Below, one piece after another: positions 6,333 through 31,576 of a stretch of DNA of 36,272 nucleotides. A model generated the notes under the pieces. That model saw only the letters and a program-made list of their open reading frames with translations. It ran no database searches and was not told the origin of the DNA. This stretch comes from an uncultured bacterium (GTDB lineage Bacteria; Abyssobacteria; SURF-5), in assembly GCA_964607485.1 (NCBI GenBank), contig CAZSKP010000042.1, positions 1 through 36,272 of the forward strand, in the 5' to 3' direction. A program made the translations under genes and the position numbers. Position 1 is the first letter of the stretch, and each line of letters opens with the position of its first letter.

Positions 6333-6389
6333 AGAATAGTAGATTTCCCTATGCTGGCACCGATAGGAGAAAAGTCTGTCGGAATTACA

Positions 6390-8363: not shown

Positions 8364-8373
8364 GGGACTCCGC

Positions 8374-9327: not shown

Positions 9328-9352
9328 GTTCTCCTGGCTGTCGCATCGCGCG

Positions 9353-10510: not shown

Positions 10511-10538
10511 ACTCCCGTTCTTGGGCCCGTCTGGCGTT

Positions 10539-15003: not shown

Positions 15004-15580
15004 ATGCATACTATCGAATTGGGTTCGCACAGTGCGAGCTTCACAATTATCGTACTGGATCGCAAGGGGGAACTGCGCTCGTGTTTGAGACGATCGAGCT
15101 CAGAGGAAGATCTGATCGAGATTGTCAGCGCGGCTGAAAGCTCGAAGCAGCTGGTCGTTGAGGAAAGCCATCTGGCACGGTAGATCAAAGCTGTGCTCGA
15201 GCCATACTCAGATAAAGTCATCATCTGCGATCCCCGGCACAGCCGATGGATTGCCCAGGAGGGCTTCGCCAACGATCGCACCAGCGCCATCAAGCTCACC
15301 AAGCTCTGTCGCGGCAGGTACATCAAAGATATTTCTCATCTGGATGATACGGGCGCATCGCTTCGATCTCTGTTCTTGCACAACTATGATTTGAACTGCC
15401 AGACCATGCGGTTCAAGCTGAAGCTCAAGGCCATCTTCAGGCAGATCGGTATTCGGGCCTCGAGCCAGTCCATGAACCAGGACTTGTATTTAAGGGATTA
15501 TCTCGAGCAGCTTGATGCTGGCACACCAGGCGAGGCAGTACTTTGCTCTTGTCGATTCCTTAGCAGCGTATGAAGCATAG
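15004..15580 (+). mobile_element. IS110-family recombinase/transposase pseudogene
   Basis: AAGGAGG RBS; decayed DEDD domain MHTIELGSHS...LVVEES...IICDPR...NDRTSAIKL; internal TAG at 15181-15183; frameshift near 15515; C-terminal domain absent. Confidence 0.8.
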
Positions 15581-15763
15581 AACCTGGACGGAAACGCCTA
15601 ATATTATCCCATAACCTAACTCCTGCGCCAAAGTGTCGCAAATCGTCTGAAGACGCACGCGGTGTCCTTGCTCACTGATAGAAAGCGGAAAGGGAGGAAT
15701 CTCCCATCCTCCGCAATGAATTATCCGGTTCATCCTGGCTAACACCAATTCATGGGATTTGCG

Positions 15764-17311
15764 TTATTCGTTACAATCAGCCGCATGTCGCATTTCACAG
15801 TATGAATAGACGACAAACGAGTCGTTCCTGAAGAGCTCTGAAAAGCTCTCAGGTCTGCCGGCGATCATCGGCACCAGATATTGCAGGTCACGCTCTTCGG
15901 TGAGCTTGACGATCACATGGGTGACGCCGACGCTGTCGAAGTGCTCCAGTATCTCCTCCGCCGTGGCGTCTTTTGGATATGCGGTAGCGGATCGTCCGGT
16001 ATAGAGGGCGAGAACGCGCGGCTTTCGGAAGGCAAACACCGCCTCGGCATCGGTGTCCTCCTTGACGTACGTGAAGAGTTCGGTCGCGTCCCTGCTGTAA
16101 GGACCATCAGGTGTTTTATCGGAAAGCACAATCGCCCTGCCGAGGCCCGAGGAATATGAGACTGCAATCATGCCCGCGACAATCCCTGCAAACACTTGTT
16201 GGCGATGCTCGCTCCCGATCACCTCTCCTATTCTCAGTATTCCGACAATCAAGCACAAGAAGTAAAACGGCGCGACAGGCAGCAGGAACCTCCGCGCATT
16301 CGAAGGGAATATCAGCAGCGTCGTCAAATAGAAACACAGGAAGAACTCATAGAAAGAAACACGCCTCCGCACCTTTGCAACGGCACCGGTGATCACCACA
16401 GGGGTGGTAAGGAGAAACATCGCTCTGCCCGTGTAAGGTATGCCAAGCACATCCGACCACAGGACGTCGAGATGGATGAAGTAGTAGTTTAGAGCAGTAA
16501 ATAGGTCTTCCGTCTCCCACCCTATGAACTGGTCAAGGTAGGAAATATCCGATCGGAGAAAGACTCGGCTGAGTAGAACCAATAGGACGGAGAGACCGCC
16601 GGCCATCAGTGCAAATCTTGACGGCCTCTTGTTTCGGAAGAAGTCGTACGCCGGCAAGGCGGGAATCAGCACGACCCCGACGGTCCTGAGCAGGTAACAG
16701 CAGAAGAACAACGCCGCGAACAACAGTGCCGGCCGGACGCCCAGCCGACCCTTCCTATAGCAGACTTCAGTCAGGACGATCGAGCACAGCAGGAAGAAGA
16801 GAAACGGTAGGTCCGACATCACCGAATTCTTGAAGTTCACGACATAGGGATTCATCGCAAAGAGCAGGATTGCAGTCACCCGATACTTGAACGGTAGATC
16901 GTCGCGGAACAACAACAAGAGCGGGGGCAAGGTAAGCAAGAGAAACGCGATTATTTCAATCTTGAAGGCTGCCATCGACAGTCCGAACAGCATGCAAGCG
17001 GGCGCCAAAAGGAGTGGGAAGCCGGGGGGATACTGCCTGGGGCCGAGCGAGGGGTAGGACGAACAATATATGTAGCCGGTGTTCCCATACGGCATGCCGG
17101 TGGCAAGATTCTCGGCGTGATGGATGTATTGGGCGAAATCGCCGCCCCAGTCATGTCCGGGCCGTATCGTCACGAGATCCAACAGGCCGATTAGCAACAC
17201 GACGCAGAAGAACAAGGGCCTATGACTTCGTTTGGCCACATCCTTCAATGCTGCCTCAGGCTTGACATTTGCGCCAATCACCGTTATTCCTTTTCGGGGA
17301 TTCACGGACAC
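15764..17311 (-). CDS. GT-C-fold membrane glycosyltransferase (PMT/ArnT-related, divergent), paralogue 4
   Basis: Polytopic; DWGGDFAQY, YPPGFPLLL, MSDLPF and RRFLLP; soluble C-terminal domain. Confidence 0.75.
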   Translation of the reverse strand: MSVNPRKGITVIGANVKPEAALKDVAKRSHRPLFFCVVLLIGLLDLVTIRPGHDWGGDFAQYIHHAENLATGMPYGNTGYIYCSSYPSLGPRQYPPGFPLLLAPACMLFGLSMAAFKIEIIAFLLLTLPPLLLLFRDDLPFKYRVTAILLFAMNPYVVNFKNSVMSDLPFLFFLLCSIVLTEVCYRKGRLGVRPALLFAALFFCCYLLRTVGVVLIPALPAYDFFRNKRPSRFALMAGGLSVLLVLLSRVFLRSDISYLDQFIGWETEDLFTALNYYFIHLDVLWSDVLGIPYTGRAMFLLTTPVVITGAVAKVRRRVSFYEFFLCFYLTTLLIFPSNARRFLLPVAPFYFLCLIVGILRIGEVIGSEHRQQVFAGIVAGMIAVSYSSGLGRAIVLSDKTPDGPYSRDATELFTYVKEDTDAEAVFAFRKPRVLALYTGRSATAYPKDATAEEILEHFDSVGVTHVIVKLTEERDLQYLVPMIAGRPESFSELFRNDSFVVYSYCEMRHAADCNE

Positions 17312-17458
17312 GACAGCATCTCTTTCCCCAAATATGATGGCGCGCTCAGGCTTCTCTTCATTCTGGGACCTACTCGCAGCGACGGCACCGAACTGTCCCC
17401 AGTTACTGCTTTAGTCAAGATGATCGAATTCTGGGCTAACAGGCCACTTGATGAACGG

Positions 17459-19810
17459 CTATTGCGTTTCCGTTGGTCTGGCAACGAAAGGATGGAGGAT
17501 TTTTCCTTCGTCGATGACTCTCTCATTCAGTGTGTATGCCGAAAAGCAACACCTGTCCGGGGCAAACTTGAGCACAAGCGTTACGTTCTCACAGTCCTCA
17601 CCCGCTATTCTCTCCGCGCACTCGGGACGGAGATCCCCCTTCCTTAACTTACCGCTGCTGCCGACCGTCATGTATTGAATGCCGTGGATGGGCCGGAGGC
17701 GCTCATATACATGATTGTGTCCCGCAAGCACGAGGTTTACGCCGGTCTTCAGGAACAAAGGTTCGAGCAGGTCGATCATGGCGGGGTCCGAAGGATTCTT
17801 CTTTGCCGAGGAATATATCGGATGATGCATAGCGACAACCTTCCATCGCGCAACGCTCGCTTCGAGAGCGCCGGTGAGCCATTCCACCTGCTGCGGATCA
17901 TTCCTGATCGTGTTGGAATCGAGGAAGAACACTTCCACGAGGTCATCGCCGAACATTCTTGAGTAGTAGCGTCTTCCCTCCATGTTGAACAGGGGGTAGT
18001 TAGTTTGGAAGTCCGCTTTCCCGTATTCGAGGTCGTGATTGCCAAGGGCGGCGTAGAACGGAACAAGGTTCTCGATCAGCGGTGCATATGGCCGCTCGAA
18101 GTACTTGCGATAGGCTCTTGCGGGATCTCCGCCACCATCCCATCCAACGACGTTGTCTCCGAGCAGTAGAATCCCGTCGAGCGACGTGCCCTGATCGACA
18201 TGATACAGCGTCCAGCCCAGCGCGTCCTGCGAGATGGTGCCCGTTCCCGCATCTCCAAGCACCGCCAGCCACACAGTGTCGGAGGATCGCTTGGGATCGC
18301 AGAATATCAGGAAATGCCGGAATGGTCCCTGGGTGACCGAATAGCTAACGTCTTGTTCCTTCAGATCCGCAACGATCTTCTCGAAATCACTTTCACGAAC
18401 GAGGAGCACGTGGACGTAACGGCTCGAAGCCAGTTCCTCGTATTCCTCGCTGATGTGCTCTACGGGGGCGAATGTGGAGGCACGGGTCTTTTCCTTTGTG
18501 GTCACGGATTCGACGTTCGCGCCGCTGTAAAAGGCAAGCCCGAGATAGTTGCTGCGGATGACAGCGATCTCGTAGGGAGCATCCCCCACCTTCTCTTCTA
18601 TCTGTCCCTTTATTCCGGTCCACATCGCCCGACTGTCGCGCTTCCAGGTCACGTGGGCGGCAACCCCTTTCGATATCAGCAGGATGAGGATCAGAATTCC
18701 CAGACACATGCCCGGCTTTCCGCGAAAGCGGATAGCAAGCGAAACCTTATCGGGATATCGCATCACCAATGCACGCGAGCTCGCAAGCGCGAGTGGAGCG
18801 TACAGCGGCAACACATAGAGGGGAAGCCGTGAACTAGCCAGGCAGAATACTGCCAGGGGAATGCTGAACCAGAGGACGAGAAACAGGGCATTCGGTCTCT
18901 CGCGTAGATTTCGCCACCACGCAAATGTATGAAGGCGAGGCCGGCTGTACGCCAACAGCCGAGGCCAGAAAGCCGCCCACGGAAGCGGGCCCGCAAGGAG
19001 CGTTGGCAGGTATACCTTGAAAGGTCCCAACCAGCCCGGATTGCGATTCTGCTCGCCGCTGAATATCCGTCCGATAAGTTCGTGCTTATATAAGTATGAG
19101 AAGAGTTCTCGATACTGCATCGTGACCGCCACAAACCACGACGCCGACACACCAATGAAGAGAAGCAAACCCAGTGCGGTGACTGCGGCGGGAAGCCGCT
19201 TCACGCTTCTGTAGATCAGGAGAAATGCTAAGATCGATGCAAGCGGAAGTAGTCCGGGCGGTCCCTTTGTCAGGAACGCCAGGCCGAATGAGAGCCACAT
19301 CGTCAGCGACCAGAGTGAGGCCCGGAACGCATTTTCTCTTCCAGACACGCTCATCCAGAAGCAGAAGATCGCCAGGGTCTCGAAGAACGTGAGAATCGTA
19401 TCAGTTGTGACCGCGTTGCCGGCAAGAAACGGCAGGATCATCGTTGCATAGGACAAACACGCAAACAAGCCAGTGCGTCGATCCCACATGCGCTCGCCGA
19501 GCAATCCCACGAGCATGGCAGTGAGTGCAAACGCAAGCCCGTGGAACACTCGTGCGCCCCACTCGTTTCTGCCGAAGAAGCGGATTCCCGCGGCGATCAG
19601 CCAGTACGTTGTCGGAGGCTTCGTGAAATGCGGCTCGTAATTAATCTGCGGGACGAGCCAGTTGCCCGTTTTCTGCATCTCATATGAGCAGCGGACATAG
19701 CGGCCCTCATCCGGTTCCCAGAGCCCGCGCGAACCCTGGAAAGCGAAGGCAAGAGTCAGTACGAGTGCCGCGATAATCAATCGTGTTCTCTTGGCGTTTT
19801 CCTGTTCCAT
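17459..19810 (-). CDS. ArnT-family glycosyltransferase fused to a C-terminal metallophosphoesterase
   Basis: N-part LWEPDEGRY, TKPP, TKGP, SRLPLYVLP; C-part (from ~18290) LGDAG, LGDN, LGNHD, MHHP, AGHNH. Confidence 0.88.
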   Translation of the reverse strand: MEQENAKRTRLIIAALVLTLAFAFQGSRGLWEPDEGRYVRCSYEMQKTGNWLVPQINYEPHFTKPPTTYWLIAAGIRFFGRNEWGARVFHGLAFALTAMLVGLLGERMWDRRTGLFACLSYATMILPFLAGNAVTTDTILTFFETLAIFCFWMSVSGRENAFRASLWSLTMWLSFGLAFLTKGPPGLLPLASILAFLLIYRSVKRLPAAVTALGLLLFIGVSASWFVAVTMQYRELFSYLYKHELIGRIFSGEQNRNPGWLGPFKVYLPTLLAGPLPWAAFWPRLLAYSRPRLHTFAWWRNLRERPNALFLVLWFSIPLAVFCLASSRLPLYVLPLYAPLALASSRALVMRYPDKVSLAIRFRGKPGMCLGILILILLISKGVAAHVTWKRDSRAMWTGIKGQIEEKVGDAPYEIAVIRSNYLGLAFYSGANVESVTTKEKTRASTFAPVEHISEEYEELASSRYVHVLLVRESDFEKIVADLKEQDVSYSVTQGPFRHFLIFCDPKRSSDTVWLAVLGDAGTGTISQDALGWTLYHVDQGTSLDGILLLGDNVVGWDGGGDPARAYRKYFERPYAPLIENLVPFYAALGNHDLEYGKADFQTNYPLFNMEGRRYYSRMFGDDLVEVFFLDSNTIRNDPQQVEWLTGALEASVARWKVVAMHHPIYSSAKKNPSDPAMIDLLEPLFLKTGVNLVLAGHNHVYERLRPIHGIQYMTVGSSGKLRKGDLRPECAERIAGEDCENVTLVLKFAPDRCCFSAYTLNERVIDEGKILHPFVARPTETQ

Positions 19811-19842
19811 GACAAACCGATCTTGTCCCTTGGATTAGCTCA

Positions 19843-20837
19843 TTACTGCGCGATACGCCCTAAGGGAGGGGGTGTTGGTCGGCTGATGACCGTACAGAGC
19901 ACATCGCGACTGCCGATCTGCGCCCAGACAACATCTTCCATGATGCATGATTTAGGAATTACTAATGCATCCTTTCGATTGGAGTCGTATATCAGGAAAA
20001 TCCTATCCGACTTGCCCAGGGCCTTCAGAACATCTTCTTTGTCTCCTAGCATGGGAACGCGTCGGTGCATGTAGCAGTGTATGTTTGGCCGGTAGAATCC
20101 ATAGAAGAACAGCTGGTCATCTCCTCTCATATCTCTTAGCACCGTTGAACAGAAAGGACGCGCCGATTTGAAGTGGTCCATTAACGGCGCTGCGTAGCCA
20201 AACACAGTTACAACAAGGAGGACTGTAATCACCACAATGCTTCCGAGCTCGACCATAGGCGGCCGGTGGACGCACAGGCGATAGAGGAAAAATAATCCCA
20301 CAGAACCTGCGGCGGCTGCCGCCATTGCGAGCCATATGTACTGCTGCGTATGCGGATATGCGCCCGCTGTAAGGACAACCAGCCCAACGATGCATAGCAA
20401 GGCAAGCAGAAGCAGCGGCAGGAAGAACTCCTTTCGTTCGCGGAGCCTGCCCTCCTCCGGATTCGAGCTCATCAGCGCCCAGCCTAAGAGCAGCCCAGCT
20501 GCCGGAAAGAGAGGCAGAAGATACTGTCTCCTCTTGCCCGAAATGAGCGTAAAGAAGATGAATCCAGCAATATAGAAAGAGCGGCGCTCCTTCTCGTAAC
20601 CGAGATAAACATTGCCAGCGCGATCAACCAGAAATAGAGTGGTGGCTTCTCAGGATAGACCTCGCCGTTGAGATGCGGCGCTACCCCGTCTCCCGTCTCG
20701 ATCATCTCACGTGCCACCTGCGCATATGGAGGTTCATCCGGGTCCCACAGGTCACGAGCCCCGATCTTCAAGAAGAAGAGGAAATAACAGATAAAGAGCA
20801 GCAACACTATGTGCTTCCGCGACGCGATACCTGACAT
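19843..20837 (-). pseudogene. ArnT paralogue with large internal deletion and frameshift
   Basis: N-terminus LWDPDEPPYAQVAREM...EKPPLYFWLIA jumps in another frame to SGKRRQYLLPLFP and the C-terminal domain. Confidence 0.85.
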
Positions 20838-21029
20838 GCTGCGATCCCTTAACCGGTTCGAAGAGTTCTCGCTTTCGTCAGCAGTATGTTAAGACCGGTC
20901 CACAGTAGCGACAAAGGCATAGGGATAATTCCGTAACCTCTCCAACGCAAGGATACGGTTCGCCCGCCTATGGCCGACGAACTTCCGACAATTAAGGAGT
21001 GTTGTCGAGGCAACAATCAATCACCTAAG

Positions 21030-21215
21030 CTAAGCAGATACCCGCGTGCGGTAAATGAGCATCAAGTTGCGAATGTATACAACAGCCCCAAAGCCGTGTC
21101 CCAAGATGAATACCGGGTCACGGCGTCTCTCCGATGCTATTCACTGAACTGCGAACCGCATGGTAAAGACTAGTTGTCCGAGAAAACCAATGCTTAGCCA
21201 CATCTGATCATTCAC
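21030..21215 (-). pseudogene. LAB_N (lipid-A-disaccharide synthase N-terminal domain) small membrane protein relic
   Basis: MNDQMWLSIGFLGQLVFTMRFAVQ*IASERRR/DPVFILGHGFGAVVYIRNL; the conserved W is a TGA (21141-21143) and the middle helix is deleted. Confidence 0.85.
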
Positions 21216-21277
21216 CGTTTTTCCTTAGCTTCATGGCTTAGGTAACACTTCAACAACCACAAGGGGGCACGGAGATC
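21212..21277 (-). pseudogene. Possible C-terminal tail of a GT2 polyprenol-phosphate glycosyltransferase
   Basis: DLRAPLWLLKCYLSHEAKEKR* with its TGA overlapping the LAB_N GTG (GTGA); GT2 genes commonly precede LAB_N genes. Confidence 0.4.
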
Positions 21278-21381
21278 TTGCTTCGTCGTAAATGATCCTC
21301 GTAGGTGACATAAACCTTCTAACAATGCGACCTCGTGGCGATATCAAGTTTCAGGACACGCAGGTCAAAAAGACAGAGGAA

Positions 21382-21416
21382 ATTATAGTGAAACGAACAT
21401 TACGGAGAGATTATGA
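21382..21416 (-). promoter_or_regulatory. Direct-repeat box plus -10 element (copy 2)
   Basis: Minus strand TCATAAT-CTCT-CCGTAAT-N11-TATAAT. Confidence 0.8.
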
Positions 21417-21771
21417 ACGCAGTGCACATTCCAGAAGCCGGCACACCCCGGCCCGTCTTGCCTGCCTGTATACTCGTCGAGGAGGTGGGCGTCCGTTAGG
21501 AGGATCTTAACCGGCAATCATGGTGGTTACCCAACCTGATGATGATTCGGTCCCATCCTTGATTTGTTACTTGACATCGTCTATCCCCTCAGGGACAAAC
21601 TGCAGATCGTCCGAAACTAGAAGTGTTCTCTTGACTGAGAAAGCCCCTTTCACTCTCTGTTATGATATCGGTCCAATTTGCCCTCGTTTATGCACTAAAA
21701 TGAATAGAACCTCGGAAGTAGGACGCCACTCCCATTTCAGGAGGTGAGGCCCTTCTCGAAGACAATATCGC

Positions 21772-21940
21772 TCAAGGAGTTGTCATGTCGATGAGTTCGA
21801 CACGCTCTCCGGCCTCCCGATTTGTTTCAAGCACCACACCAATACCGGGGGCATAGCACTTGAATTCGACGAGATCGGGTTCTACGGGCGAAAAGTCTCT
21901 CGTTTTCAGAACATCAACGGAAAATGCGCCGAAGGTGGCT
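21772..21940 (-). pseudogene. C-terminal fragment of a conserved hypothetical (probably exported) protein
   Basis: FGAFSVDVLKTRDFSPVEPDLVEFKCYAPGIGVVLE...ERVELI resembles a known uncharacterised beta-rich family; no credible start. Confidence 0.5.
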
Positions 21941-22074
21941 CCATTTAGCCCGCGGCACCGTTGATGGATTACCACTCGGTCGCCATAATCTCGTAGTCAT
22001 AAATGAAATATAGATTTGAACAGAAACGGCCGCAACAATGACCAAATGGGGCTCTAACGCTGTCGTTCGGTCTT

Positions 22075-25000
22075 TCATTCTCTGTTGGCGGTGTTCCCAT
22101 CCGAGAGCGCTTTCTCGTCTTCTTCTTTTCTTCCTCCGACACGCAAGACCATGAACGCAACGGGTAATATGAAAAGCACGAGCGGCATTTGCACGGAAAG
22201 CCCGGAGATGATAGCGATAGCCAACGGTTGTTGCATGGCCGAACCCTGCCCTATGCCCAAGGCAAGAGGCAGGAGAGCAAGAATGGCCGCCACCGTAGTC
22301 ATGGCTATTGGTCGCATGCGATTTTTGCCTGCCGTTATCAGCCGTTCTTGTTGATTCAATCCGGCTGGCAAATCGTAGTATTCGGACGCATAGAAGATAG
22401 CGACTTCGGTGACAATGCCCACAATCATGGTCATGCCCATCATGGATGATATGTTGATTTCCGTGCCTGTGAGCCATAGTCCGACGAATACCGCCGCCAT
22501 TGACAGAAGGGTAGTTGCCATGATGGCGATGGCGGATCGAAAACTTTCATAGATAAACAGAAGCAGTATAAAAACAAGAATCACAGCCGACGCCATGACT
22601 GCCGTCAGACCGGCGAATGCAACTTGTTGCTGCGCGTAGAGCCCACCCAAATTGTAGTAAACTCCCGCGGGCAATAGCCCGGGTCGTTTGAGAGCTGCTT
22701 TAATGTCGCGTATTACGGAGCCCATGTCTCGGCCGCTAATGCGCCCAGTGACGGCAATCATTCGCTTGAAATCGTCGTGCATAATCTGTGGTTGGCCGGT
22801 AATAGGAGACGTGGCGGCTATTCGCTTGAGAGGAAAGAGATGCCCATCGGGAGCGCTAAGTTGCAGGTTGTCGACGTTTCGTTCGGTTGCCCAAGCATCG
22901 GCTGGGAGAGACAACCGCACGCCGACCAGTTTAGGCCCAGCCTGTATTTGTGTGGTGACCACTCCGCTGAGATAATCCGATAATGTCTCCGTAACGGATT
23001 GTGGATCTGCCCCTTCCAAAGACGCTTTGACCCGGTCGACCTTGATTCCGAGAGCGTCGCCGGCGAGCACAATGCCGTCGCGCACATCCACAACGCCGGG
23101 GATTCTTCCGATGGATTCGGCTACCTGCGGGCCGAGCTTGTTCAGAATTTCCCCGTCATCAGAGTAAAGCTTGATCTCGATCGGCTGGGGCACGGCGGTG
23201 AGATCGCCAATAAGGTCTTCCATCAATTGAAGCATCTCAATTTGCAGGCCGGGGACTGTCCGTTCCACTTGCGTGCGCACATCGTCCATGACCGTTTCGA
23301 TTGGCCGTCGGGGAAACGGCTTGAGACGGACAAAGAAGTCGCCTTCATTAGCTTCAGTCAGCCCGCCGCCAAGCTGGAGTCCTGTGCGACGAGAGTACGT
23401 TTGCACATCGGGCGTTGCGCGCAGGATGCCCTCCACCCGACGCAGGAGACGATCCGTCTCGGTGAGCGAAGTCCCCGATGGGGCCCAATAATCCAGAATG
23501 AAACCACCTTCGTCCATTGCCGGCATGAAGCCCGAGCCAATATGCCTGTAACTAAACCACCCCGCCAAGAGGAGAGGAGCTATGCCGAGCGTCACAAGCC
23601 AGGGGCGAGTCAGAAGACGTCGCAGCACCGCATCGTAGATGTGATGAACTCGTGTTGTCACAGCGCCACCCTCTTCCTGGGCAGCATCTTTCTCGTTCAG
23701 CAAATGTTCCGCGATAAGCGGCACGGCGAGCCACGCCACGAAGAACGAAACGAAGAGACTGGCCGCCATGGTAAGGGACAATGCTTTGAAGAATGCGCCG
23801 GTCACCCCCGAGAGAAACGCCAAAGGCGTGAAGATGATGATTGTCGAAGCTGAGGAGCCAAGAAGCGGCTTGCTGAACTCGCGAGCGGCATGCATCACCC
23901 TGAGATGGTGTTCACGGTCGCTTCCACGCAACCGGCGAACCATGTGTTCCACCATGACAATGGTATCATCAATAATAAGCGCCACTGCCGCCGCCATTCC
24001 GCCAAGGGTCATGATGTTGAAGCTCATGCCTAATGCATACAACAGCAGCACTGTCGAAGCCAACACACACGGCACCGATGCAATCGCGATCAGCATGGTT
24101 TTGGCGTTGCGGAGAAAGATTAACAAGATGACCGCGGCAAGCAAGACTCCGATGAGGACAGCGTCACGCACGCTGGAAGTGGAGGTAAGAATCAATTCGC
24201 TCTGGTCATACCAGTTAGCAATCTTGATGTTTTTGGGCAATTGTCCGCGAATCCCTTCGAGCTTCGCTTTCAGCTCCTGAGCGATCCGGACCGTGTTGCC
24301 ACCCGGTTGCTGGTAAATCTGGAAGATCACCGCGTCATGGCCGTCGGCGGTGACGCGCGTCCACTGAGGGACCGTCTCCAGGTCCACCGCAGCAATATCA
24401 TCGAGACGCACTATCCCATTTTTGGCGGAACGCACCACCGTTTGACGAATCTGGGAAAGATTGAGGAAACGGGTATCCGACATGACAAGGTAGAGTTTGT
24501 AGTGGTCTTCCATGCGGCCTACCGCCGTGATTACGTTACCAGCAGAGAGCGCGCTTGCTACGTCTTGCATAGACAAACCAAAGGAAGCAAGTCGAGCGGG
24601 GTCAACGGTCACCCGATATTCCGCCTCGGCGCCACCAAGCGTCTCAACCTTGGACACGCCTTCTACTGTGGAAAGCAATGGCCGTAGCTGATACTGCGCT
24701 ATGTCCCGAAGCTCGACCAGTGAGTGAGCATCGGAAGTAAGCGTGTACCCCAGAACGGGAAATACCGTGGGGTCCATTCTTCGGACGCTAAACGTGGTCC
24801 CTTGAGGCAGAGACGCCAACACTTGATTTATGGCCGATTCCACTTGCAGCAGAGCTGCCACCATGTCTTTCCCCCAACCGAAGCCAATTGAGATCTCGGC
24901 GCTCCCTCGACTGGTGGTAGAACGCACATTGAGAACTCCGGGAACGGCCCGTGCCGCCTCCTCGACCGGTCGGGTCACCTCGATGGCCATGCGTTCCGCC

Positions 25001-25164
25001 GGACGGTCGCCGGCGTCCACGTTCACTTGTACCCGGGGGAAGTCAACATTCGGGAAGAGGGAGACTGGAAGATGCAGACTACTAGCCAATCCGCCGAGAG
25101 CCAGTGCTGCCATCAGGAAAAGGATAGATCTGCGATGTTGCTGCACCCACCCTGCAGCGCTCAT
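22075..25164 (-). CDS. RND efflux transporter permease (AcrB/CusA superfamily)
   Basis: 1029 aa; TRPVEE, NIMTLGG, LIIDDTIVMVE, GFMP..DEG, RMRPIAMT, QPLAIAIISGL. Confidence 0.95.
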   Translation of the reverse strand: MSAAGWVQQHRRSILFLMAALALGGLASSLHLPVSLFPNVDFPRVQVNVDAGDRPAERMAIEVTRPVEEAARAVPGVLNVRSTTSRGSAEISIGFGWGKDMVAALLQVESAINQVLASLPQGTTFSVRRMDPTVFPVLGYTLTSDAHSLVELRDIAQYQLRPLLSTVEGVSKVETLGGAEAEYRVTVDPARLASFGLSMQDVASALSAGNVITAVGRMEDHYKLYLVMSDTRFLNLSQIRQTVVRSAKNGIVRLDDIAAVDLETVPQWTRVTADGHDAVIFQIYQQPGGNTVRIAQELKAKLEGIRGQLPKNIKIANWYDQSELILTSTSSVRDAVLIGVLLAAVILLIFLRNAKTMLIAIASVPCVLASTVLLLYALGMSFNIMTLGGMAAAVALIIDDTIVMVEHMVRRLRGSDREHHLRVMHAAREFSKPLLGSSASTIIIFTPLAFLSGVTGAFFKALSLTMAASLFVSFFVAWLAVPLIAEHLLNEKDAAQEEGGAVTTRVHHIYDAVLRRLLTRPWLVTLGIAPLLLAGWFSYRHIGSGFMPAMDEGGFILDYWAPSGTSLTETDRLLRRVEGILRATPDVQTYSRRTGLQLGGGLTEANEGDFFVRLKPFPRRPIETVMDDVRTQVERTVPGLQIEMLQLMEDLIGDLTAVPQPIEIKLYSDDGEILNKLGPQVAESIGRIPGVVDVRDGIVLAGDALGIKVDRVKASLEGADPQSVTETLSDYLSGVVTTQIQAGPKLVGVRLSLPADAWATERNVDNLQLSAPDGHLFPLKRIAATSPITGQPQIMHDDFKRMIAVTGRISGRDMGSVIRDIKAALKRPGLLPAGVYYNLGGLYAQQQVAFAGLTAVMASAVILVFILLLFIYESFRSAIAIMATTLLSMAAVFVGLWLTGTEINISSMMGMTMIVGIVTEVAIFYASEYYDLPAGLNQQERLITAGKNRMRPIAMTTVAAILALLPLALGIGQGSAMQQPLAIAIISGLSVQMPLVLFILPVAFMVLRVGGRKEEDEKALSDGNTANRE

Positions 25165-26261
25165 CGGGAGACCTCTGTTTCAACCAGCATGCCGTCTTTA
25201 AGCTCGTAATTGCCAATAATAACCACCGAGTCGCCAGCCTGGATTCCGGCGCCCGCAACTTCAAGTTCCTTCTTGTTTTCAAGACCGAGCCGGACCGTGT
25301 GCTTCACCGCCCGGCCTTCTTTGACGGTGAAAAGAATGTTTTCCCCTTCGTGCGGTAGAACCGCAGTGTGGGGAACAATCAGGCCCTCAGTTGAAGCTAT
25401 TGATATCGTTCCAAACACATATTCGCCCAGGAGGAACTCAGCGGACGGCGCTAACGTAACGAAAACATCCACGAGGCGCGTGGTTGGGTTAACAGAGCGT
25501 GAGACCTTCCGGATACGTCCGGTTACGGCAGGCGATGTTGGTGCATTCACGCGCACAAGCGAGACCGATTGGTTCGAATGGACGTGGTCAATGTCTTCTA
25601 GCTCGATTCCGAGTCGAACTTCCAGCCGGTTCTGGGCAATGATTTCCGCAAGAGGGTTCCCTGCAGAAACGATGGCTCCTTCTTGGACATTAACCTTGCT
25701 GCTCAGTCCGGCCACATCTGCACGAATTTCGCGCGGGCCGGCGATCCCGCGCTCTTTCATGCTTTCAAGAGCGAGTTCGGCCTGCTGCAACCTCTGTTTG
25801 GCTTCCAGCAGTTGGTCATTGGTTTTGAGTCTAAGATTGAACTGCTGTTGTATCTGACGGAGACCCTCCTTGGCTGACTGATACGCGGCGCGTTCCTGTT
25901 GTAATTGAAGATACGTATCAGGGCTTGGTTCGATTTCAAGAAGGATATCTCCCGGTGAAACCTCTTGGCCTTCACTGACCGACACGCGGCGCACCTGACA
26001 TTCAAATGGGACAGAAACAGTCTTTACCGCGTCAGGCGCGGGGATGGCTGTTCCATTGACTATGATGTCTTCTGTTATCGTTCCTTCTCTGATGGGAACA
26101 GTCTTCACAGAGGCCACGGGGCCGTCCGCAACTTTTGCTTGGGGAGTGGCGCTATTCTTCTTGACGGATTGTGCTTCGCTGCGAGAAAGCCACCAAAGCC
26201 CTCCCGCAAGTATACCAACGAGGGCGGCAGCCGTTGCCACGATTGAGCCGAATCGTTTCAT
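25161..26261 (-). CDS. RND periplasmic adaptor (membrane fusion protein)
   Basis: N-terminal anchor, VSEGQEVSPGDILL lipoyl motif, coiled coil, VNPTTR; ATG 26261 overlaps the TolC stop. Confidence 0.92.
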   Translation of the reverse strand: MKRFGSIVATAAALVGILAGGLWWLSRSEAQSVKKNSATPQAKVADGPVASVKTVPIREGTITEDIIVNGTAIPAPDAVKTVSVPFECQVRRVSVSEGQEVSPGDILLEIEPSPDTYLQLQQERAAYQSAKEGLRQIQQQFNLRLKTNDQLLEAKQRLQQAELALESMKERGIAGPREIRADVAGLSSKVNVQEGAIVSAGNPLAEIIAQNRLEVRLGIELEDIDHVHSNQSVSLVRVNAPTSPAVTGRIRKVSRSVNPTTRLVDVFVTLAPSAEFLLGEYVFGTISIASTEGLIVPHTAVLPHEGENILFTVKEGRAVKHTVRLGLENKKELEVAGAGIQAGDSVVIIGNYELKDGMLVETEVSR

Positions 26262-27643
26262 TTGGGTATCTCCTGCTCCTCGGCACGTGTACAGTACCAT
26301 CCGGCAGCTATTTCGAGCGCACTTGTTTGATCAGCGAGGTCTTGCTTCAGTTTGAGCACCCCTATTTGTTTCTCGAACAATTCGTTTCGGACATTGTAAT
26401 AACTGAGAACATCGGCATTGCCCTCTAGCAGGGCATTGTGATAGGCTTGAACCACGTCGCTCAGCGTCGGGATGATTTGTTCATCTGCATGGATTTGTTG
26501 CTTGATGGCGTCGATATTTGCCAGTATCTTCGCCAAGTCAGACCTCGCTTGATAGACCCGTGCCACATATTCGTCGAGCAGCTGCTTTCGAGTCGCCTTT
26601 TCTATTGCGATTGGTCCCTGGTTGCGGTCAAAGATAGGGAGGTCTATGGTGATGCCGAAGCCGGTGGAGACGACATTGCCGGTGTCGCGGGCGTGGGAAA
26701 ACCCGATGTTGATATTGGGGAATTGGGCAAGGATTGCCGATCTCAGCCGCGCCTCCTGGCTTTGGTACCCCATCTTGAGAGCGAGGAGGTCAAGGCGCCT
26801 CCCCTCGATTCCGTCCATTATCTCCGAGGTAGCGGGAAGCACCTTCTGTGAAAGCGGTTCTACGCCTTGCTGAAGCGGAATTATGTACTCTGGAGGCAGC
26901 CCGAGCGCTTCATTCAAGGCAAGTCGCTCCTGTTCCGCCTGCTGTTGAATAGCGAGTAACGAGGCATGCGCGTTCTGCTGAGCCGCATGAGTCGCAGATA
27001 GGTCAATCACTGTCACATATCCGGCATCGACTGCTTTTCTCAAGGCATCGAGGCTCTCCGAAAGACCTTCCTGTTCGCTTCCTGCGATTGCCAGTTGTTG
27101 TTGAAGGAGAATCGAGCGGCACACGTGCAGCTTAGCCGCTTCGGCAACCTGCCATTCCTGCCACGCGATATCGAGGTCCACAGAAGCGGCTTGCGCCCGC
27201 GCGGCATCGATTTCTGCGTGCCGAGTGATCAAGGATCTTATGTCCCAACCGAGGCCCAGACCAAAGCCGTTGACCGTTCCTTGGGTGCTTCCACCTGTGG
27301 GTACATCGAGACTATAAGAGAGTTGCGGATTGGGGAGAATAGCGGCCTGGAGAAGTTGAGCCTTCGCAATTCCCCTTTCGTCGCGGATAGCGCGGAGGGT
27401 GGGGTTGACCAGGACGGCCATGACAGCTGCTTCATCCGGGGAAAGCCCGTCTTTCTCATCGAACTCGATCCGTTGCAAGATCGGGTGTTTGATTTCCCTT
27501 GCTTGAATGCGAATTGTTTCCATGCTTGGGGGCGTCAGCTCGCGAGAGACTCTGGAATGATCCAGCGGCTCCTGATGATAGGCCACACACCCTTGGAAGA
27601 TAATAAAAGCAAACCCGATAAGTAAATGGCGTCTTCTTATCAT
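26258..27643 (-). CDS. TolC-family outer-membrane efflux lipoprotein
   Basis: Lipobox-like FQGC, AVLVNPTLRA, LPNP, LPIFDRNQG; start at 27643 or 27673. Confidence 0.9.
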   Translation of the reverse strand: MIRRRHLLIGFAFIIFQGCVAYHQEPLDHSRVSRELTPPSMETIRIQAREIKHPILQRIEFDEKDGLSPDEAAVMAVLVNPTLRAIRDERGIAKAQLLQAAILPNPQLSYSLDVPTGGSTQGTVNGFGLGLGWDIRSLITRHAEIDAARAQAASVDLDIAWQEWQVAEAAKLHVCRSILLQQQLAIAGSEQEGLSESLDALRKAVDAGYVTVIDLSATHAAQQNAHASLLAIQQQAEQERLALNEALGLPPEYIIPLQQGVEPLSQKVLPATSEIMDGIEGRRLDLLALKMGYQSQEARLRSAILAQFPNINIGFSHARDTGNVVSTGFGITIDLPIFDRNQGPIAIEKATRKQLLDEYVARVYQARSDLAKILANIDAIKQQIHADEQIIPTLSDVVQAYHNALLEGNADVLSYYNVRNELFEKQIGVLKLKQDLADQTSALEIAAGWYCTRAEEQEIPK

Positions 27644-28046
27644 TGCGCCAATCGCGATTCCGGCAGCAGGCATTCTGCTGTTCCGCTCGAAAGAATTTTA
27701 GGGGCTTTTCGGATAAAGACGGTCATTGACACCATTTTGCCTTCTTCATGTTGTTCTCACAGTGACTCGTAATTGCAAGAGGGTTCTCCTGCTGGTCAGA
27801 AGAACGAAATGCATGTATACCTTGTAGATCAACGGGAATGTCCATACGAGGGCCCTAATTGAAGGACTTACTCTTCGTATTTTCTCCCCTTTTTCAGTTG
27901 GGCTGAGTCCAATACCTCTTGTATCTCTATGATCACCAATGAGTCCTGTTATCAGAATCACCCTTCAGTCTTGTCCTCTCACAACTCTCCATCTCTCCAA
28001 GCATATGGAATCGCAACCTCCAGTATCACGGCCCGAAAGACGGTCA

Positions 28047-28667: not shown

Positions 28668-28804
28668 GTTCGTTTCGAAAGGGATTCCCCTCGAACAGGG
28701 GCAATAATCGTTCCATTCCGCTTTCTTGTTCGGTTGTCTTGGCATGCATTCCCCGTTGTTTCCAGGAAGCGATGACGTGGAATTTCTCACATTTGGGTTC
28801 TTCG

Positions 28805-28839
28805 ATTATAGAAACGGGAACATTACGGGAAGATTACGG
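28805..28839 (-). promoter_or_regulatory. Direct-repeat box plus -10 element (copy 3, perfect repeat)
   Basis: Minus strand CCGTAAT-CTTC-CCGTAAT-N11-TATAAT; the first repeat overlaps the kinase's last codon and stop. Confidence 0.82.
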
Positions 28840-30372
28840 CTTGTTGGCCGTGTGGGACGAAAATTGGGCTCGCTCAGCTGCTTTCCCGGTGAGAGTGATC
28901 ATCAACGTTGTGGGAGTTGTGAGACGGGAATCGACGGCAAGTCCAAGAACCGAGGACAGGGATTGGATTAATGATAGCCCCAGACCGCTATGGGCGTGCC
29001 CTGACGTTCGGGCTTCATCCTTTCGCCAAAAGGGTTCGAACAGATAGGGCAGATCATTACTCGACAAACCCTCAACTGAATTGGAGATAGAGAAGGAAAA
29101 GGTGCCCTCTTTAGTATCTGCTTTCCACTCAATCGTCCCTCCCTCGGGCGTATAGCTGACAGCATTGGAGAAGAGATTCTGCAATATTGTTTGCAGGAGG
29201 TATTGGTCAGTGACGACGAATAGCTGCGACGGCACATCGCAGTGCACCGTTATCCTCTTGCCGGCGGCAACGTCTGCATGCTCTCTCCAAATGGAGTTGA
29301 CCAATGGCTCTAATTCAACTTCCTCTCTTCCGTGCGTCAGATGGCCCGACTGGTACCGGGCAAGAGTGAGAAGGTTCGTGACGGTCCTCTGCATTTCCTT
29401 TGCCGATGCAAGAATATCACTGTAATTGTCGCGGTTATCGTGATCCAGGCTGTCACCCCATTTCAGAGCCACCTCGGAGAGCGAACGGATTTCGCTGATG
29501 GGCGTGCGCAGCTCATGGGCCACATTTGCAGTGAATCGCCGTTCCCGCTCGAAAGCTTCCTTCAATTCTTCGATAACGCGATTAAGGGTCATGGCTACCG
29601 TGGCGATTTCCTTCACTTCCGGCACGTTTACCGGTGACATATTCGATGAGGAGATCGATCGTACTTCCCGGTCCAGGTGCTGAAGAGGCTTGAGACTTCG
29701 CTCGATCGTAATCCATCCAAGAACAAGCGTCAACAAGAGCCCCACGCCCAACACAGGCGCCGTTGTCTCGATCGATTGCTCATACCGCTCATTGACATAG
29801 CTATTGTCCAGGCCGGCGACGAAGAGAAGCTCCGTGCCCGTGGAAGCTGTGGAGTAGCTTCTTCGGGCGGCACCTGCAGGATCTTCTTTGCGAGGAGAGT
29901 CCTCCGCTTCACTTTCGGCCCCTTCTTCTCTTTCGGATCGCACGAATCTACGGAGGGCAACGAAACGAACATCTTTGCCGTTTAATTGTTCATTCCAGAA
30001 CTCAGGCTTGTCCCGCGGAATTTGACGCACGGTTTCAGGCAGCGACAACTTCACATTCTTCAACGATTCTGATCGCCACACTTCTGAATTGTCGGCAATT
30101 CGGAATATTGCGAAATGAGCATGGGGATGATCCCGAGTGAAGTCCCGCATGATTTCATCGGAGGCTTTCCATCGTATCGCGCCGTTCGAATCCACTTCCG
30201 TCTGCGAAGCTACGCTCAACGCATAAGCCGTTATAGCCTTGTCCGAGATCTTGATAAACGATCTGCGGCTTTTCTCGACTATCGTTATTTCCGTCAACAA
30301 GAACACACCGAACACTATCAAGAACAGGTAAAACAAAATTCGATTCTTCAGGCTATGAAACTTGAGGCCCAT
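28834..30372 (-). CDS. Sensor histidine kinase (2 TM, periplasmic sensor, HisKA, HATPase)
   Basis: FTANVAHELRTP, QNLFSNAVSY, LFEPFWR, HSGLGLS. Confidence 0.93.
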   Translation of the reverse strand: MGLKFHSLKNRILFYLFLIVFGVFLLTEITIVEKSRRSFIKISDKAITAYALSVASQTEVDSNGAIRWKASDEIMRDFTRDHPHAHFAIFRIADNSEVWRSESLKNVKLSLPETVRQIPRDKPEFWNEQLNGKDVRFVALRRFVRSEREEGAESEAEDSPRKEDPAGAARRSYSTASTGTELLFVAGLDNSYVNERYEQSIETTAPVLGVGLLLTLVLGWITIERSLKPLQHLDREVRSISSSNMSPVNVPEVKEIATVAMTLNRVIEELKEAFERERRFTANVAHELRTPISEIRSLSEVALKWGDSLDHDNRDNYSDILASAKEMQRTVTNLLTLARYQSGHLTHGREEVELEPLVNSIWREHADVAAGKRITVHCDVPSQLFVVTDQYLLQTILQNLFSNAVSYTPEGGTIEWKADTKEGTFSFSISNSVEGLSSNDLPYLFEPFWRKDEARTSGHAHSGLGLSLIQSLSSVLGLAVDSRLTTPTTLMITLTGKAAERAQFSSHTANKP

Positions 30373-30385
30373 CGATCATCCTTCG

Positions 30386-31051
30386 CTATTCAATGAGGTA
30401 TCCCGCTTTTCGTCGCGTTTTGATTAGTGATGCCTCTCCAATCTTTCCGAGTTCCTTTCTCAGCGTGGATATCGCCGCATCCACCACATTGCTCATCGGC
30501 TCTGTGCGCTCGTCATAGATATGCTCCTCGATTTCCGTCCGGCTAACGACAGTACCTCTCCGCAATACCAGAAACTCGAGCAAGGTATACTCCCGAGGAG
30601 GTAGTGGGACAACCTCGCCGCCGCAGATGACGGTGCGTGTCGCCAAGTTGATTTGAAGACTTCCCACCGAAAGATTGTCCTGTTTGACGCCGTATCTGCG
30701 GCGTACGAGCGCCTGTACACGGGCAAGTAGCTCCTCAAAAGCAAAGGGCTTCACCAGATAATCGTCGGCGCCCGACTCTAAACCTTGGACCCGGTCTTCG
30801 ACAGTGTCTCTCGCCGATAGGATCATCACACTGGCAGGTCTCTGCTTCTGCCGGAGTTTCTGCAAGATGGAAAGACCGTCCAGTCCCGGCAACATCAGAT
30901 CAAGGATTATGACATCATAGTCAAAAGACTCGGCAAACCAGAGTCCCTCGCTGCCATCCCCGGTCGCGTCAACCTTGAAACCTTCCTTTCGCAGCCCCAT
31001 GGAAAGGGATTTTTGAAGCCGCGTCGAATCTTCAATTAGCAACAGTCGCAC
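30386..31051 (-). CDS. OmpR-family response regulator, cognate to the adjacent kinase
   Basis: GTG start at 31051 (MRLLLIEDS), DLMLP, DDYLVKPF, SNVVD...LRK. Confidence 0.92.
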   Translation of the reverse strand: MRLLLIEDSTRLQKSLSMGLRKEGFKVDATGDGSEGLWFAESFDYDVIILDLMLPGLDGLSILQKLRQKQRPASVMILSARDTVEDRVQGLESGADDYLVKPFAFEELLARVQALVRRRYGVKQDNLSVGSLQINLATRTVICGGEVVPLPPREYTLLEFLVLRRGTVVSRTEIEEHIYDERTEPMSNVVDAAISTLRKELGKIGEASLIKTRRKAGYLIE

Positions 31052-31315
31052 AACCCACTCTCCGGGTAGCTGCCAATCGCAGTCAGTGACTATCGTTTCA
31101 TATTCTACTTCATACGGGCGGTTTCGCTCAACCGCCATGCCCGGATATGTTGCCGAAGAATGAGAAGAGGAGAAAACAGGCCCAGCATCGGGATCATGTC
31201 TTCTTAGGAGACTATCGGTCCCGGAGTCTGTGGGAATGATACAATCTGTGGGTACAGGCTTAGGTCGCATGGTGCACTCGGACATACTTCTCTCGTGGCA
31301 GAAGCCATGGGTACA

Positions 31316-31564: not shown

Positions 31565-31576
31565 GGTCGATTCCTC

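Follow-up and report, generated by a model that had tools for sequence, protein, structure and literature searches.

A conserved fusion of an ArnT-like glycosyltransferase and a metallophosphatase, with a possible role in exchanging envelope phosphate for sugar

Results

The fusion gene and its neighbours

The window, by which we mean the whole 36,272-nucleotide stretch of uncultured bacterial DNA analysed here, contains one open reading frame in which an ArnT-like glycosyltransferase body of the GT-C type (residues 1–508, membrane part plus periplasmic domain) is followed directly by a metallophosphatase (residues 509–783). The ORF list and its translation give an ATG start and 783 aa on the minus strand; the corresponding plus-strand frame has many stops. 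The single uninterrupted 783-aa ORF of an earlier note on this DNA, which gave no strand, is therefore present. The fusion and the genes that bear on it are as follows.

17459..19810, minus strand: whole fusion gene, 783 aa plus stop (ORF list, translation, Pfam, homologues)
18653..19810, minus strand: GT-C membrane domain, residues 1–386 (phmmer match to ArnT 5EZM; last hydrophobic segment 367–385)
18287..18652, minus strand: ArnT-type periplasmic alpha/beta domain, residues 387–508 (AlphaFold secondary structure; Foldseek alignment to 5F15)
17462..18286, minus strand: purple-acid-phosphatase-like metallophosphatase domain, residues 509–783 (Pfam Metallophos, PDB sequence matches, Foldseek)
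15764..17311, minus strand: 515-aa membrane protein, downstream of the fusion (by features, PMT_2/PMT in 12–45% of members of the nearest ESM Atlas clusters)
19843..20837, minus strand: broken ArnT-like gene (ORFs of 117 and 209 aa), upstream of the fusion (tblastn)
21060..21191, minus strand: broken remnant of a LAB_N small membrane protein gene (Pfam PF07578)
22075..27673, minus strand: RND efflux operon (outer membrane factor, membrane fusion protein, RND pump), upstream of the fusion (Pfam)
28834..31285, minus strand: two-component system, a histidine kinase with a 2CSK_N sensor and an OmpR-type regulator (Pfam)

By Pfam, the window also carries arnB, arnC, arnA, and arnD, further PMT_2 genes, and two-component systems. 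The four arn genes lie 7–12 kb from the fusion, with two other PMT_2 genes of their own on their flanks. A lipid A substrate exists, since LpxC and LpxK are encoded in the genome, which also has two PAP2 genes of its own. Pfam gives no match for the 515-aa protein downstream of the fusion, which is probably a further divergent PMT_2-like GT-C protein, a lead only.

Several genes in the window are broken: two internally deleted ArnT-like genes, the LAB_N remnant, and an LptF/G fragment. The broken ArnT-like gene next to the fusion aligns by tblastn with residues 10–75 (76% identity) and 290–547 (48%) of a 547-aa PMT_2 protein on another contig of the genome (C47), the middle being missing. The LAB_N remnant matches PF07578 positions 1–23 and 50–71 and contains one TGA; an intact copy is found in C47 at the same relative place. 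Upstream of the fusion, no GT2 remnant was found in the window. Of the module, the fusion is intact and the LAB_N and ArnT-like genes before it are broken, a contrast that we count as evidence of selection.

The composition profile of the stretch reveals no clear foreign island (GC 0.49–0.58), and promoter and terminator scans of positions 15400–22400 gave counts near those of shuffles (8 vs. 4.7 and 8 vs. 6.3, respectively), with no usable operon borders. The stretch is found, whole or in part, in four DNA runs of one study, and no RNA runs are listed for it.

Domains and fold

Pfam places PMT at residues 8–228 (E = 3e-19) and PMT_2 at residues 64–219 (E = 1.5e-17), both above their cut-offs, and Metallophos at residues 517–702 (E = 1.9e-13, 51.7 bits vs. 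a cut-off of 21.5). Residues 12–349 match ArnT 5EZM by phmmer (E = 6.8e-26). The AlphaFold model (pLDDT 85.8, pTM 0.79) aligns in Foldseek over 565 columns with the ArnT crystal structure (5F15/5EZM) as a whole, its periplasmic domain as well as the membrane part (TM-score on target 0.72, E = 1.5e-16), in keeping with the full ArnT body that the earlier note had recognized. The membrane part is of the 13-helix type, and the ArnT loop motif PDEG (residues 33–36) lies in the first periplasmic loop. By its PMT and PMT_2 matches, its alignment to 5F15, and this motif, the fusion belongs with ArnT in the GT-C PMT clan. It differs from ArnT, however, in that the two share only 20–21% identity in the structural alignment and in the addition of a 275-residue phosphatase domain after the periplasmic domain. 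Against the NCBIfam ArnT equivalog PRK13279 it scores 184.1 bits, where the cut-off is 567, and covers only positions 7–365 of the 539 in the profile. As judged by sequence, the transferase half is ArnT-like but not an ArnT equivalog.

Residues 509–783 best match mammalian purple acid phosphatases (TRAP/ACP5), both in sequence (PDB, E = 1.2e-9) and in fold (Foldseek, 7OV8, 1UTE, and 2BQ8; E = 1e-13, TM-score on target 0.72–0.76). Pfam finds no PAP2 domain in the fusion protein, which is not a member of the LpxE/LpxF family.

Active-site residues and a missing tyrosine

The five motifs of the calcineurin-like metallophosphoesterases (PF00149: GDxG/GDxH, GDxx, GNHD/E, H, and GHxH) are all found in the phosphatase half, as GDAG (519–522), GDN (551–553), GNHD (590–593), HHP (662–664), and GHNH (697–700), so the complete domain that had been described from the letters is there. 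In the alignment, D520, D552, N591, H592, H662, and H700 are kept in 18 of 18 fusions and H698 in 17 of 18. The transferase half, with TKPP at 63–66, is similarly constrained: K64, R248, and Y332 are invariant in all 18 fusions, and D34/E35 is present in each of the 16 fusion rows that have the N-terminus. The phmmer alignment pairs K64, R248, and Y332 with K85, R270, and Y345 of ArnT; the Glu beside the Lys in ArnT (E84) is Thr in the fusion. We take R270 to be one of the residues that hold the phosphate of the carrier lipid. For K85 and Y345, contact with this phosphate has been described (PMC7801869). Active-site residues are thus intact in both halves, and at the level of sequence the possibility of an inactive domain, which the earlier note had left standing, finds no support.

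The hallmark of purple acid phosphatases is the Tyr of GDxxY, which forms an Fe(III)-tyrosinate. Of the seven metal ligands of these enzymes, the fusion keeps six, together with the GNH histidine; the Tyr is replaced by Val (GDNVV), an absence that had been noticed earlier and is borne out by the alignment. This Tyr is present in 74 of 76 stand-alone bacterial relatives but only in two of 24 scored fused rows and one of five split or short rows. Most ArnT-linked forms therefore lack one metal ligand, which leaves the site under-coordinated and its chemistry uncertain, and the loss in this clade suggests a changed function.

Predicted location of the phosphatase domain

The last hydrophobic segment of the fusion spans residues 367–385, and none is found C-terminal to residue 386. 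Because no membrane segment follows this point, the phosphatase domain should be periplasmic, facing outward from the inner membrane. A cytoplasmic domain, which the earlier note had named as a possible objection, would also sit poorly with the alignment to whole ArnT and with the relatives, which appear to be exported: of 76 stand-alone homologues, 62 begin with a strongly hydrophobic signal, and the remaining 14 have mostly twin-arginine-like leaders (judged by eye). A phosphatase split off as a separate gene in a genome of the window's family (G004) has its own N-terminal signal anchor.

Conservation and spread of the fusion

Among 120 clusters listed, 18 (query included) have PMT and Metallophos over 93–100% of the query at 40–62% identity, which makes 17 other full-length fusions. 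A second copy, 62% identical, is encoded in the same genome (C47:11712-14033). In the window's family, the phosphatase domain is found in three of nine other genomes: It is fused in G003 (an 812-aa frame), split off in G004, and represented in G006 only by a Metallophos match that is weak and distant (E = 3.3e-16). A second phylum, that of G041, has matches at the threshold of E ≤ 1e-40 in 10 of the 35 genomes searched; eight of its genomes were confirmed to encode, in all, 11 ORFs that combine the two domains in a single frame, one ORF being cut by a contig end.

These sequence comparisons indicate that the fusion is old and conserved rather than a recent accident, and most of the relatives that bear the domain are fused, not encoded by the two separate genes that the earlier note had considered. 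The window does contain broken genes, and in such an island one might suspect that the fusion arose recently by accident or that the domain is inactive; this is contradicted by the 17 further full-length fusions, the paralogue in the same genome, the fusions in a second phylum, and the invariant catalytic residues, and we consider it very improbable.

A metagenome scan returned no new complete fusion among the 80 loci listed (67 of the phosphatase type only, 12 of the transferase type only, and one with both as separate genes). None of 72,556 plasmid records in PLSDB has a place covering ≥80% of the protein, and 317 match the ArnT-like part only. Our literature search found no paper on an ArnT-like plus metallophosphatase architecture, in agreement with the earlier note, whose author knew of no such characterized protein. 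The architecture is rare, conserved, and unstudied.

Split relatives, other fusions, and losses

The separate phosphatase gene of G004 follows an ArnT-like gene at a distance of 37 bp, and in the tree its product nests inside the fused clade. Because of this nesting, the arrangement looks like a later split of a fused gene. Within the transferase subfamily, the domain has been lost several times (the starred branches of the tree force at least four changes), and in P0134 the phosphatase domain has decayed; coupling of transferase and phosphatase is therefore not obligatory. Among the nearest unfused homologues of the transferase (10 loci), two (L102 and L002) have a different Metallophos gene within three genes, and the L102 neighbourhood also has VTT-PAP2, GT2, and VTT genes. 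In P0162 and the G042 protein, a Metallophos domain is joined to a different ArnT-like paralogue, probably by an independent fusion, as judged from a tree in which the branches are long. GT2 and LAB_N, partners in the pathway, likewise occur as fusions with ArnT-like proteins.

Neighbourhoods of related loci

In another phylum, G071 has the order OMP-MFP-RND-fusion-fusion, with two tandem fusions, and the proteins of the window's RND operon are 43%, 36%, and 59% identical, in the same order, to the trio directly before these fusions. In G073 the order is RR-HK-PAP2-fusion-MFP-RND-PMT_2-GT2; the window's regulator and kinase are 61% and 30% identical, respectively, to the pair preceding PAP2 and the fusion. 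ArnC-like GT2 genes are present at four of 13 fusion loci (window, C47, G003, and G073) and at three of 10 unfused loci. A LAB_N gene, named for a "lipid A biosynthesis N-terminal domain," is part of the ancestral cluster, and the syntenic cluster of C47, G003, and G004 includes a PlsC-type acyltransferase. Near the unfused transferase homologues there are DedA/VTT genes, which are candidate Und-P flippases. Neighbours are uninformative at eight of the 13 fusion loci.

The stand-alone phosphatase relatives have contexts of a phosphate-scavenging type at about seven of 15 loci (PhoU plus regulator, alkaline phosphatase, Exo_endo_phos, PLD-like genes at three loci, and a regulator-kinase pair), and no LPS genes were found among the 60 neighbours scanned. 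The fused domain might then be an ordinary scavenging phosphatase for which the transferase serves just as a membrane anchor, the two being mechanistically unrelated. In favour of this, the proteins of the nearest stand-alone clade are exported and their genes often close to Pho-type genes, and unrelated genes surround many of the fusions. We regard mere anchoring as improbable: the fusion persists at 40% identity in two or more phyla, the phosphatase gene still adjoins an ArnT-like gene after fission, other Metallophos genes lie near unfused homologues, a second fusion has probably arisen independently, and the ArnT-linked clade has lost the Tyr ligand that nearly all stand-alone forms retain.

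Discussion

A possible exchange of phosphate for sugar

From the architecture, its conservation, the intact residues, and the predicted location obtained in the analysis, we infer an order of action, a substrate, and the addition of a sugar, and we put these forward as plausible but tentative. At the periplasmic face, the ArnT-like GT-C half would draw its sugar from a polyprenyl-phosphate carrier, with the binuclear metallophosphatase held in the periplasm atop the transferase's periplasmic domain. The phosphatase would strip a phosphate from one envelope glycolipid, most likely lipid A or inner LPS, and the transferase would then add the sugar at the freed position of the same molecule. The outcome would be a cell surface with lower negative charge and less phosphorus. 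The two activities would thus be sequential steps on one molecule, rather than the two parallel routes that the earlier note had proposed. It counts against this reading that classical ArnT attaches its sugar onto the lipid A phosphate itself, so that a true ArnT would lose its acceptor, since removal of the phosphate deletes the attachment site.

To our knowledge, all established lipid A phosphatases are integral PAP2 enzymes, and none is a soluble PAP-like domain. The proposed logic is the one described for Rhizobia, in which lipid A first loses phosphate to LpxE/LpxF at the periplasmic face and then receives sugars from the ArnT-like enzymes RgtF/RgtD (PMC9393093), although LpxE and LpxF are separate PAP2 proteins and the fused domain here is predicted to be a soluble binuclear metallophosphatase. 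Recruitment of another phosphatase family has a precedent in Caulobacter, where the non-PAP2 phosphatase CtpA is proposed to replace LpxF, dephosphorylating lipid A before sugar addition (PMC9393093); CtpA is, however, a tyrosine-phosphatase homologue and is not fused to a transferase. Because the genome has two PAP2 genes, and a PAP2 gene lies directly beside the G073 fusion, the metallophosphatase may do something else.

One such role would be processing of the polyprenyl carrier, from Und-PP to Und-P or from Und-P to undecaprenol, and carrier recycling had indeed been among the functions suggested in the earlier note. Enzymes of the PMT_2/ArnT type use monophosphate-linked sugars and release Und-P with no need of a phosphatase, as is established for ArnT; recycling is therefore unlikely. 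The ArnC-like GT2 genes of the related clusters, which would make the donor, also argue against it, and stripping of the last phosphate would waste the carrier. The fusion of two domains that are both predicted to face the periplasm, the DedA/VTT genes near unfused homologues, and reported activity of LpxE-type phosphatases on Und-PP as well (PMC6581854) point the other way, but we give carrier processing little chance.

The two-step logic could also be kept with a target other than lipid A, in a phosphorus-sparing remodelling of membrane lipids. We know of no GT-C enzyme that glycosylates diacylglycerol, which counts against such a target, and PlcP-Agt, the system that best illustrates it, uses UDP-sugars on the cytoplasmic side. 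The window's context of arn, two-component, and efflux genes, with no pho genes, and the LAB_N gene of the ancestral cluster likewise argue against it. Nevertheless, the stand-alone relatives lie in Pho-like or scavenging contexts, the syntenic cluster has its PlsC-type acyltransferase, and the transferase falls short of ArnT equivalog status. In the published description of PlcP-Agt, a metallophosphoesterase and an adjacently encoded glycosyltransferase swap phospholipids for glycolipids under phosphate stress, replacing a phosphate head group with sugar on a membrane lipid (PMC8528852); compared by description, PlcP and Agt differ from the fusion in being separate proteins, with a transferase of another fold and glycerophospholipid substrates. 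We consider a non-lipid-A target possible, if doubtful.

Lipid A phosphates determine the surface charge of Gram-negative cells and are the handle for cationic peptides, polymyxins, and innate immune recognition. If the tentative lipid A exchange is correct, the conserved fusion points to an unrecognized enzyme class for lipid A phosphate removal, with a built-in replacement, and could account for phosphate-free lipid A where LpxE/LpxF are absent. More speculatively, the fusion may be the first lipid A phosphatase with a binuclear metal site (non-PAP2), joined in one protein to the glycosyltransferase that caps the freed position, so that one gene swaps an anionic phosphate for a neutral or differently charged sugar. 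Together with RND pumps and two-component regulators, it might move from one uncultivated phylum to another (Poribacteria-like and Omnitrophota-like) as a self-contained module for envelope hardening and phosphorus saving; we rate this wider proposal as conceivable rather than probable. Public records label these proteins only "GT39" or "ArnT," and this naming leaves any phosphatase activity of the fusions invisible in present annotation.

The fusion protein and its predicted topology

As the earlier note described, a single ORF of 783 codons without interruption encodes the fusion (17459-19810). It lies on the minus strand and begins with ATG; the plus-strand frame of this interval is interrupted by many stops. 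Its Pfam matches are PMT (residues 8-228), PMT_2 (64-219), and Metallophos (517-702; 51.7 bits, cut-off 21.5). The sole NCBIfam match is the ArnT equivalog model, at 184 bits against a cut-off of 567 and over the membrane part only, so we treat the front half as ArnT-like rather than as a certified ArnT. The calcineurin-like domain is complete, as had been claimed, with GDAG at 519-522, GDN at 551-553, GNHD at 590-593, HHP at 662-664, and GHNH at 697-700.

An AlphaFold model computed from 18 fusion sequences has good overall confidence (pLDDT 85.8, pTM 0.79). Over the first ~505 residues it aligns to the whole ArnT crystal structure with its periplasmic domain (5F15/5EZM; E 1.5e-16, 565 columns, TM-score on target 0.72); a full ArnT body is thus present at the level of the fold, the sequence being only ArnT-like. 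The last ~275 residues align best to the mammalian purple acid phosphatases 7OV8, 1UTE, and 2BQ8 (E ~1e-13, TM-score on target 0.72-0.76). PDB sequence searches agree with both structural matches.

In ArnT, 13 membrane helices precede a periplasmic domain (PMC7801869). The final hydrophobic segment of the fusion spans residues 367-385, with none after it, and the phosphatase begins ~10 residues past the end of the ArnT-type periplasmic domain. A strongly hydrophobic N-terminal leader is present in 62 of 76 stand-alone homologues of the phosphatase domain from species-representative genomes, and most of the other 14 have leaders that appear twin-arginine-like by eye. The split phosphatase of G004, a genome of the window's family, has its own signal anchor. 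Because of these four features, the domain is predicted, on grounds of homology and sequence, to be periplasmic, in line with the earlier note.

Active-site residues

We scored residue conservation across 18 aligned fusions. In the phosphatase, the metal ligands and the catalytic His are nearly invariant (D520, D552, N591, H592, H662, and H700 in 18/18; H698 in 17/18). On the transferase side, K64, R248, and Y332 occur in all 18, and D34/E35 in all 16 rows that have the N terminus. In alignment with ArnT, K64 and Y332 fall on K85 and Y345, which contact the phosphate of the carrier (PMC7801869). At the position adjoining the Lys (E84 in ArnT), the window's subgroup has Thr and the other fusions have Glu or Asp. 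Judged from these residues, both halves look active, which speaks against the inactive domain that had been raised as an objection.

The GDNxY motif is present in 74 of the 76 stand-alone homologues. Its Tyr is kept in only two of 24 scored fused rows (one additional fused row, without a motif match, lies outside the 24) and in one of five split or short rows. The missing Tyr first noticed in GDNVV is therefore a mark of the ArnT-linked clade, and the fusion phosphatase is, by sequence, purple-acid-phosphatase-like yet fails the defining ligand of that family. The metal site probably changed on joining the transferase.

Distribution and history of the fusion

Among 120 clusters listed from a search space of 5.8 billion proteins, 18 (query included) span 93-100% of the query with both PMT and Metallophos, their identity being 40-62%; two others are truncated forms. 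The best 150 matches of an all-against-library search include the full-length fusions P0003, P0121, and P0020 and the more distant P0162. The window's own genome carries a second copy, 62% identical, on contig C47. Of nine other genomes in the family, G003 has the fusion (812-aa frame), G004 the phosphatase alone, and G006 only a weak, distant Metallophos match (E 3.3e-16); six gave no match with the fusion query. In a second, Omnitrophota-like phylum, matches at E<=1e-40 occur in 10 of 35 genomes, with two matches each in four of these, and 11 single ORFs (one ending at a contig end) hold both domains. NCBI names such proteins only "GT39", "ArnT", or "phospholipid carrier-dependent glycosyltransferase", and labels a 59%-identical protein Candidatus Poribacteria and a 41% cluster Omnitrophica/Hinthialibacteria. 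The fusion was not found in any sequenced plasmid. Given the 17 other full-length clusters, the C47 copy, and the second phylum, these comparisons argue that the fusion is not an accident, recent or otherwise; an accidental fusion or a dead domain is contradicted by the conservation data and is hardly credible.

In a phosphatase tree of 106 domains, from a quick search with midpoint rooting only, a branch with SH-aLRT 98 separates the 76 stand-alone forms, mostly from Acidobacteriota, from all fused and split forms. The separate genes in relatives that could have spoken against the fusion do exist (G004, P0211, P0179, and P0142), but they nest within a Poribacteria-like fused group and therefore look like later fissions. 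The 567-aa ArnT-like neighbor in G004 does not correspond to the fused transferase: its orthologue in G003 and C47, at 52-54% identity, is the separate PMT_2 gene that precedes the fusion. G004 therefore appears to have lost the transferase half, and its phosphatase, now with a new signal anchor, to have remained in the cluster.

Fused and unfused members interleave in the transferase tree within a single well-supported subfamily, whose starred branches force at least four gains or losses of the phosphatase domain. P0134 (736 aa) is an ArnT-like protein with a decayed phosphatase domain, a relic of the fusion, in which SE and AEP replace GD and GDN in the first two metal motifs. In P0162 and a G042 protein, Metallophos is joined to an ArnT-like paralogue outside this subfamily, probably a second, independent fusion; the branches are long.

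Genomic context

Genes around the fusion, in minus-strand order
Response regulator
Histidine kinase with 2CSK_N sensor
28047-28790, minus: ArnT-like remnant, one 247-aa ORF joining residues 2-29 to 370-543
22075-27673, minus: outer-membrane factor, membrane fusion protein, RND pump
21060-21191, minus: broken LAB_N small membrane protein (profile positions 1-23 and 50-71, one TGA)
19843-20837, minus: broken ArnT-like gene (ORFs of 117 and 209 aa; residues 10-75 and 290-547 kept)
Intact fusion
15764-17311, minus: 515-aa multi-helix membrane protein, no Pfam match
13840-14418, plus, and 14895-15326, minus: two short ORFs, no family match
Second regulator
10539-12239, minus: PMT_2 gene
arnB, arnC, arnA, arnD
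3669-5357, minus: further PMT_2 gene

The arn cluster thus has PMT_2 genes on both flanks (3669-12239, minus), and the genome holds at least nine ArnT-like loci. The 515-aa protein is probably a divergent GT-C transferase; ESM Atlas clusters nearest to it by features partly carry PMT_2/PMT. A 141-aa ORF (2639-3064, plus) covers only the C-terminal third of an LptF/LptG LPS export permease (profile positions 219-352 of 353) and looks like a truncated gene. Truncation may also explain short ORFs at 31473-32982 (minus): one of 177 aa matches only part of an ABC ATPase (profile positions 1-131 of 137), and one of 107 aa only part of a VTT/DedA domain.

C47 and G003 share a syntenic order: guaA, GT2, LAB_N, PMT_2, (PMT_2), fusion, acyltransferase, pur genes. 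C47 has an intact LAB_N (17824-18036) at the place matching the window remnant, and 19843-20837 and 28047-28790 are internally deleted copies of one paralogue, the PMT_2 preceding the fusion in C47 and G003. By this comparison the broken LAB_N and PMT_2 are remnants of the C47/G003 module, of which the fusion alone stayed whole.

In the second phylum, G071 has the order OMP-MFP-RND-fusion-fusion (locus L197, 3730-14026). Its three pump genes, directly upstream of the tandem fusions, are the counterpart of the window's RND operon, with order preserved and identities of 43%, 36%, and 59% (the last for the pump); operon and fusion may move as a unit. G073 has RR-HK-PAP2-fusion-MFP-RND-PMT_2-GT2, its regulator being 61% identical to the window's. 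Across 13 fusion loci, an RND pump adjoins in three, a two-component system in two, and further PMT_2/GT2 genes in four; neighbors are uninformative in eight.

For the nearest unfused transferase homologues, two of the 10 loci have a different Metallophos gene within three genes: L002 (22% identical to the window's domain) and L102 (PAP-type, 30%). The metagenomic L102 cluster (4287-11099) comprises this phosphatase, a VTT-PAP2 fusion, an unnamed ORF, the transferase homologue, GT2, and VTT, and would represent the presumed pathway in unfused form.

Possible function

Each part belongs to a known family, and there are separate enzymes known to follow the two-step logic. The earlier note knew of no characterized protein with the fused ArnT-like/metallophosphatase architecture, and we found no relevant paper in the full-text literature, a scope that largely leaves out subscription journals; as far as we have found, the architecture is uncharacterized.

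The donor side is reasonably clear: the transferase would use a polyprenyl-monophosphate sugar, since it is an ArnT-type GT-C with the carrier-phosphate contacts kept and related clusters contain ArnC-like GT2 genes. Und-P, the product of ArnT-type transfer, needs no phosphatase, which makes the carrier recycling put forward in the earlier note unlikely; carrier processing by the phosphatase is accordingly among the weaker readings, and a doubtful one.

The most likely mechanism, which we advance tentatively and by analogy, is sequential: the phosphatase domain would remove phosphate from lipid A or inner LPS, and the transferase would then glycosylate it. We prefer it because of the donor side, because the genome encodes LpxC and LpxK and so makes lipid A with a 4′-phosphate, and because LpxE/LpxF followed by RgtF/RgtD provide a precedent for a phosphatase with an ArnT-like enzyme; in Caulobacter, one such step may fall to a non-PAP2 phosphatase (both from PMC9393093). 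The window also holds remains of LPS transport genes. The two-step logic is alike, but the precedent uses separate enzymes, whereas here one polypeptide carries a metallophosphatase.

Several points tell against lipid A. To our knowledge, the lipid A phosphatases established so far belong to the PAP2 membrane proteins; the window's genome has two PAP2 genes, and one adjoins the fusion in G073. Classical ArnT requires phosphate as acceptor, the Tyr ligand is lost, and the subfamily often lacks the domain. The main rival, possible if less probable, applies the same steps to another phosphorylated envelope molecule, as suggested by the domain's scavenging ancestry and by analogy with PlcP-Agt (PMC8528852).

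That ancestry is seen around the stand-alone homologues. Of 15 sampled loci, ~7 have neighbors of a phosphate-scavenging flavor: PhoU with a regulator, alkaline phosphatase, Exo_endo_phos, a regulator-kinase pair, and, at three loci, PLD-like genes. No ArnT-like ORF lies within up to 8 kb in any of the 75 loci with stand-alone homologues. That the fused phosphatase is a scavenging enzyme merely anchored by the transferase is nonetheless improbable, again one of the weaker readings. The stand-alone loci L003-L079 encode exported purple-acid-phosphatase-like enzymes of ~300 aa with Sec or twin-arginine leaders, widespread in Acidobacteriota, and many of these genes follow a same-strand ORF, without Pfam match, of ~180-300 aa.
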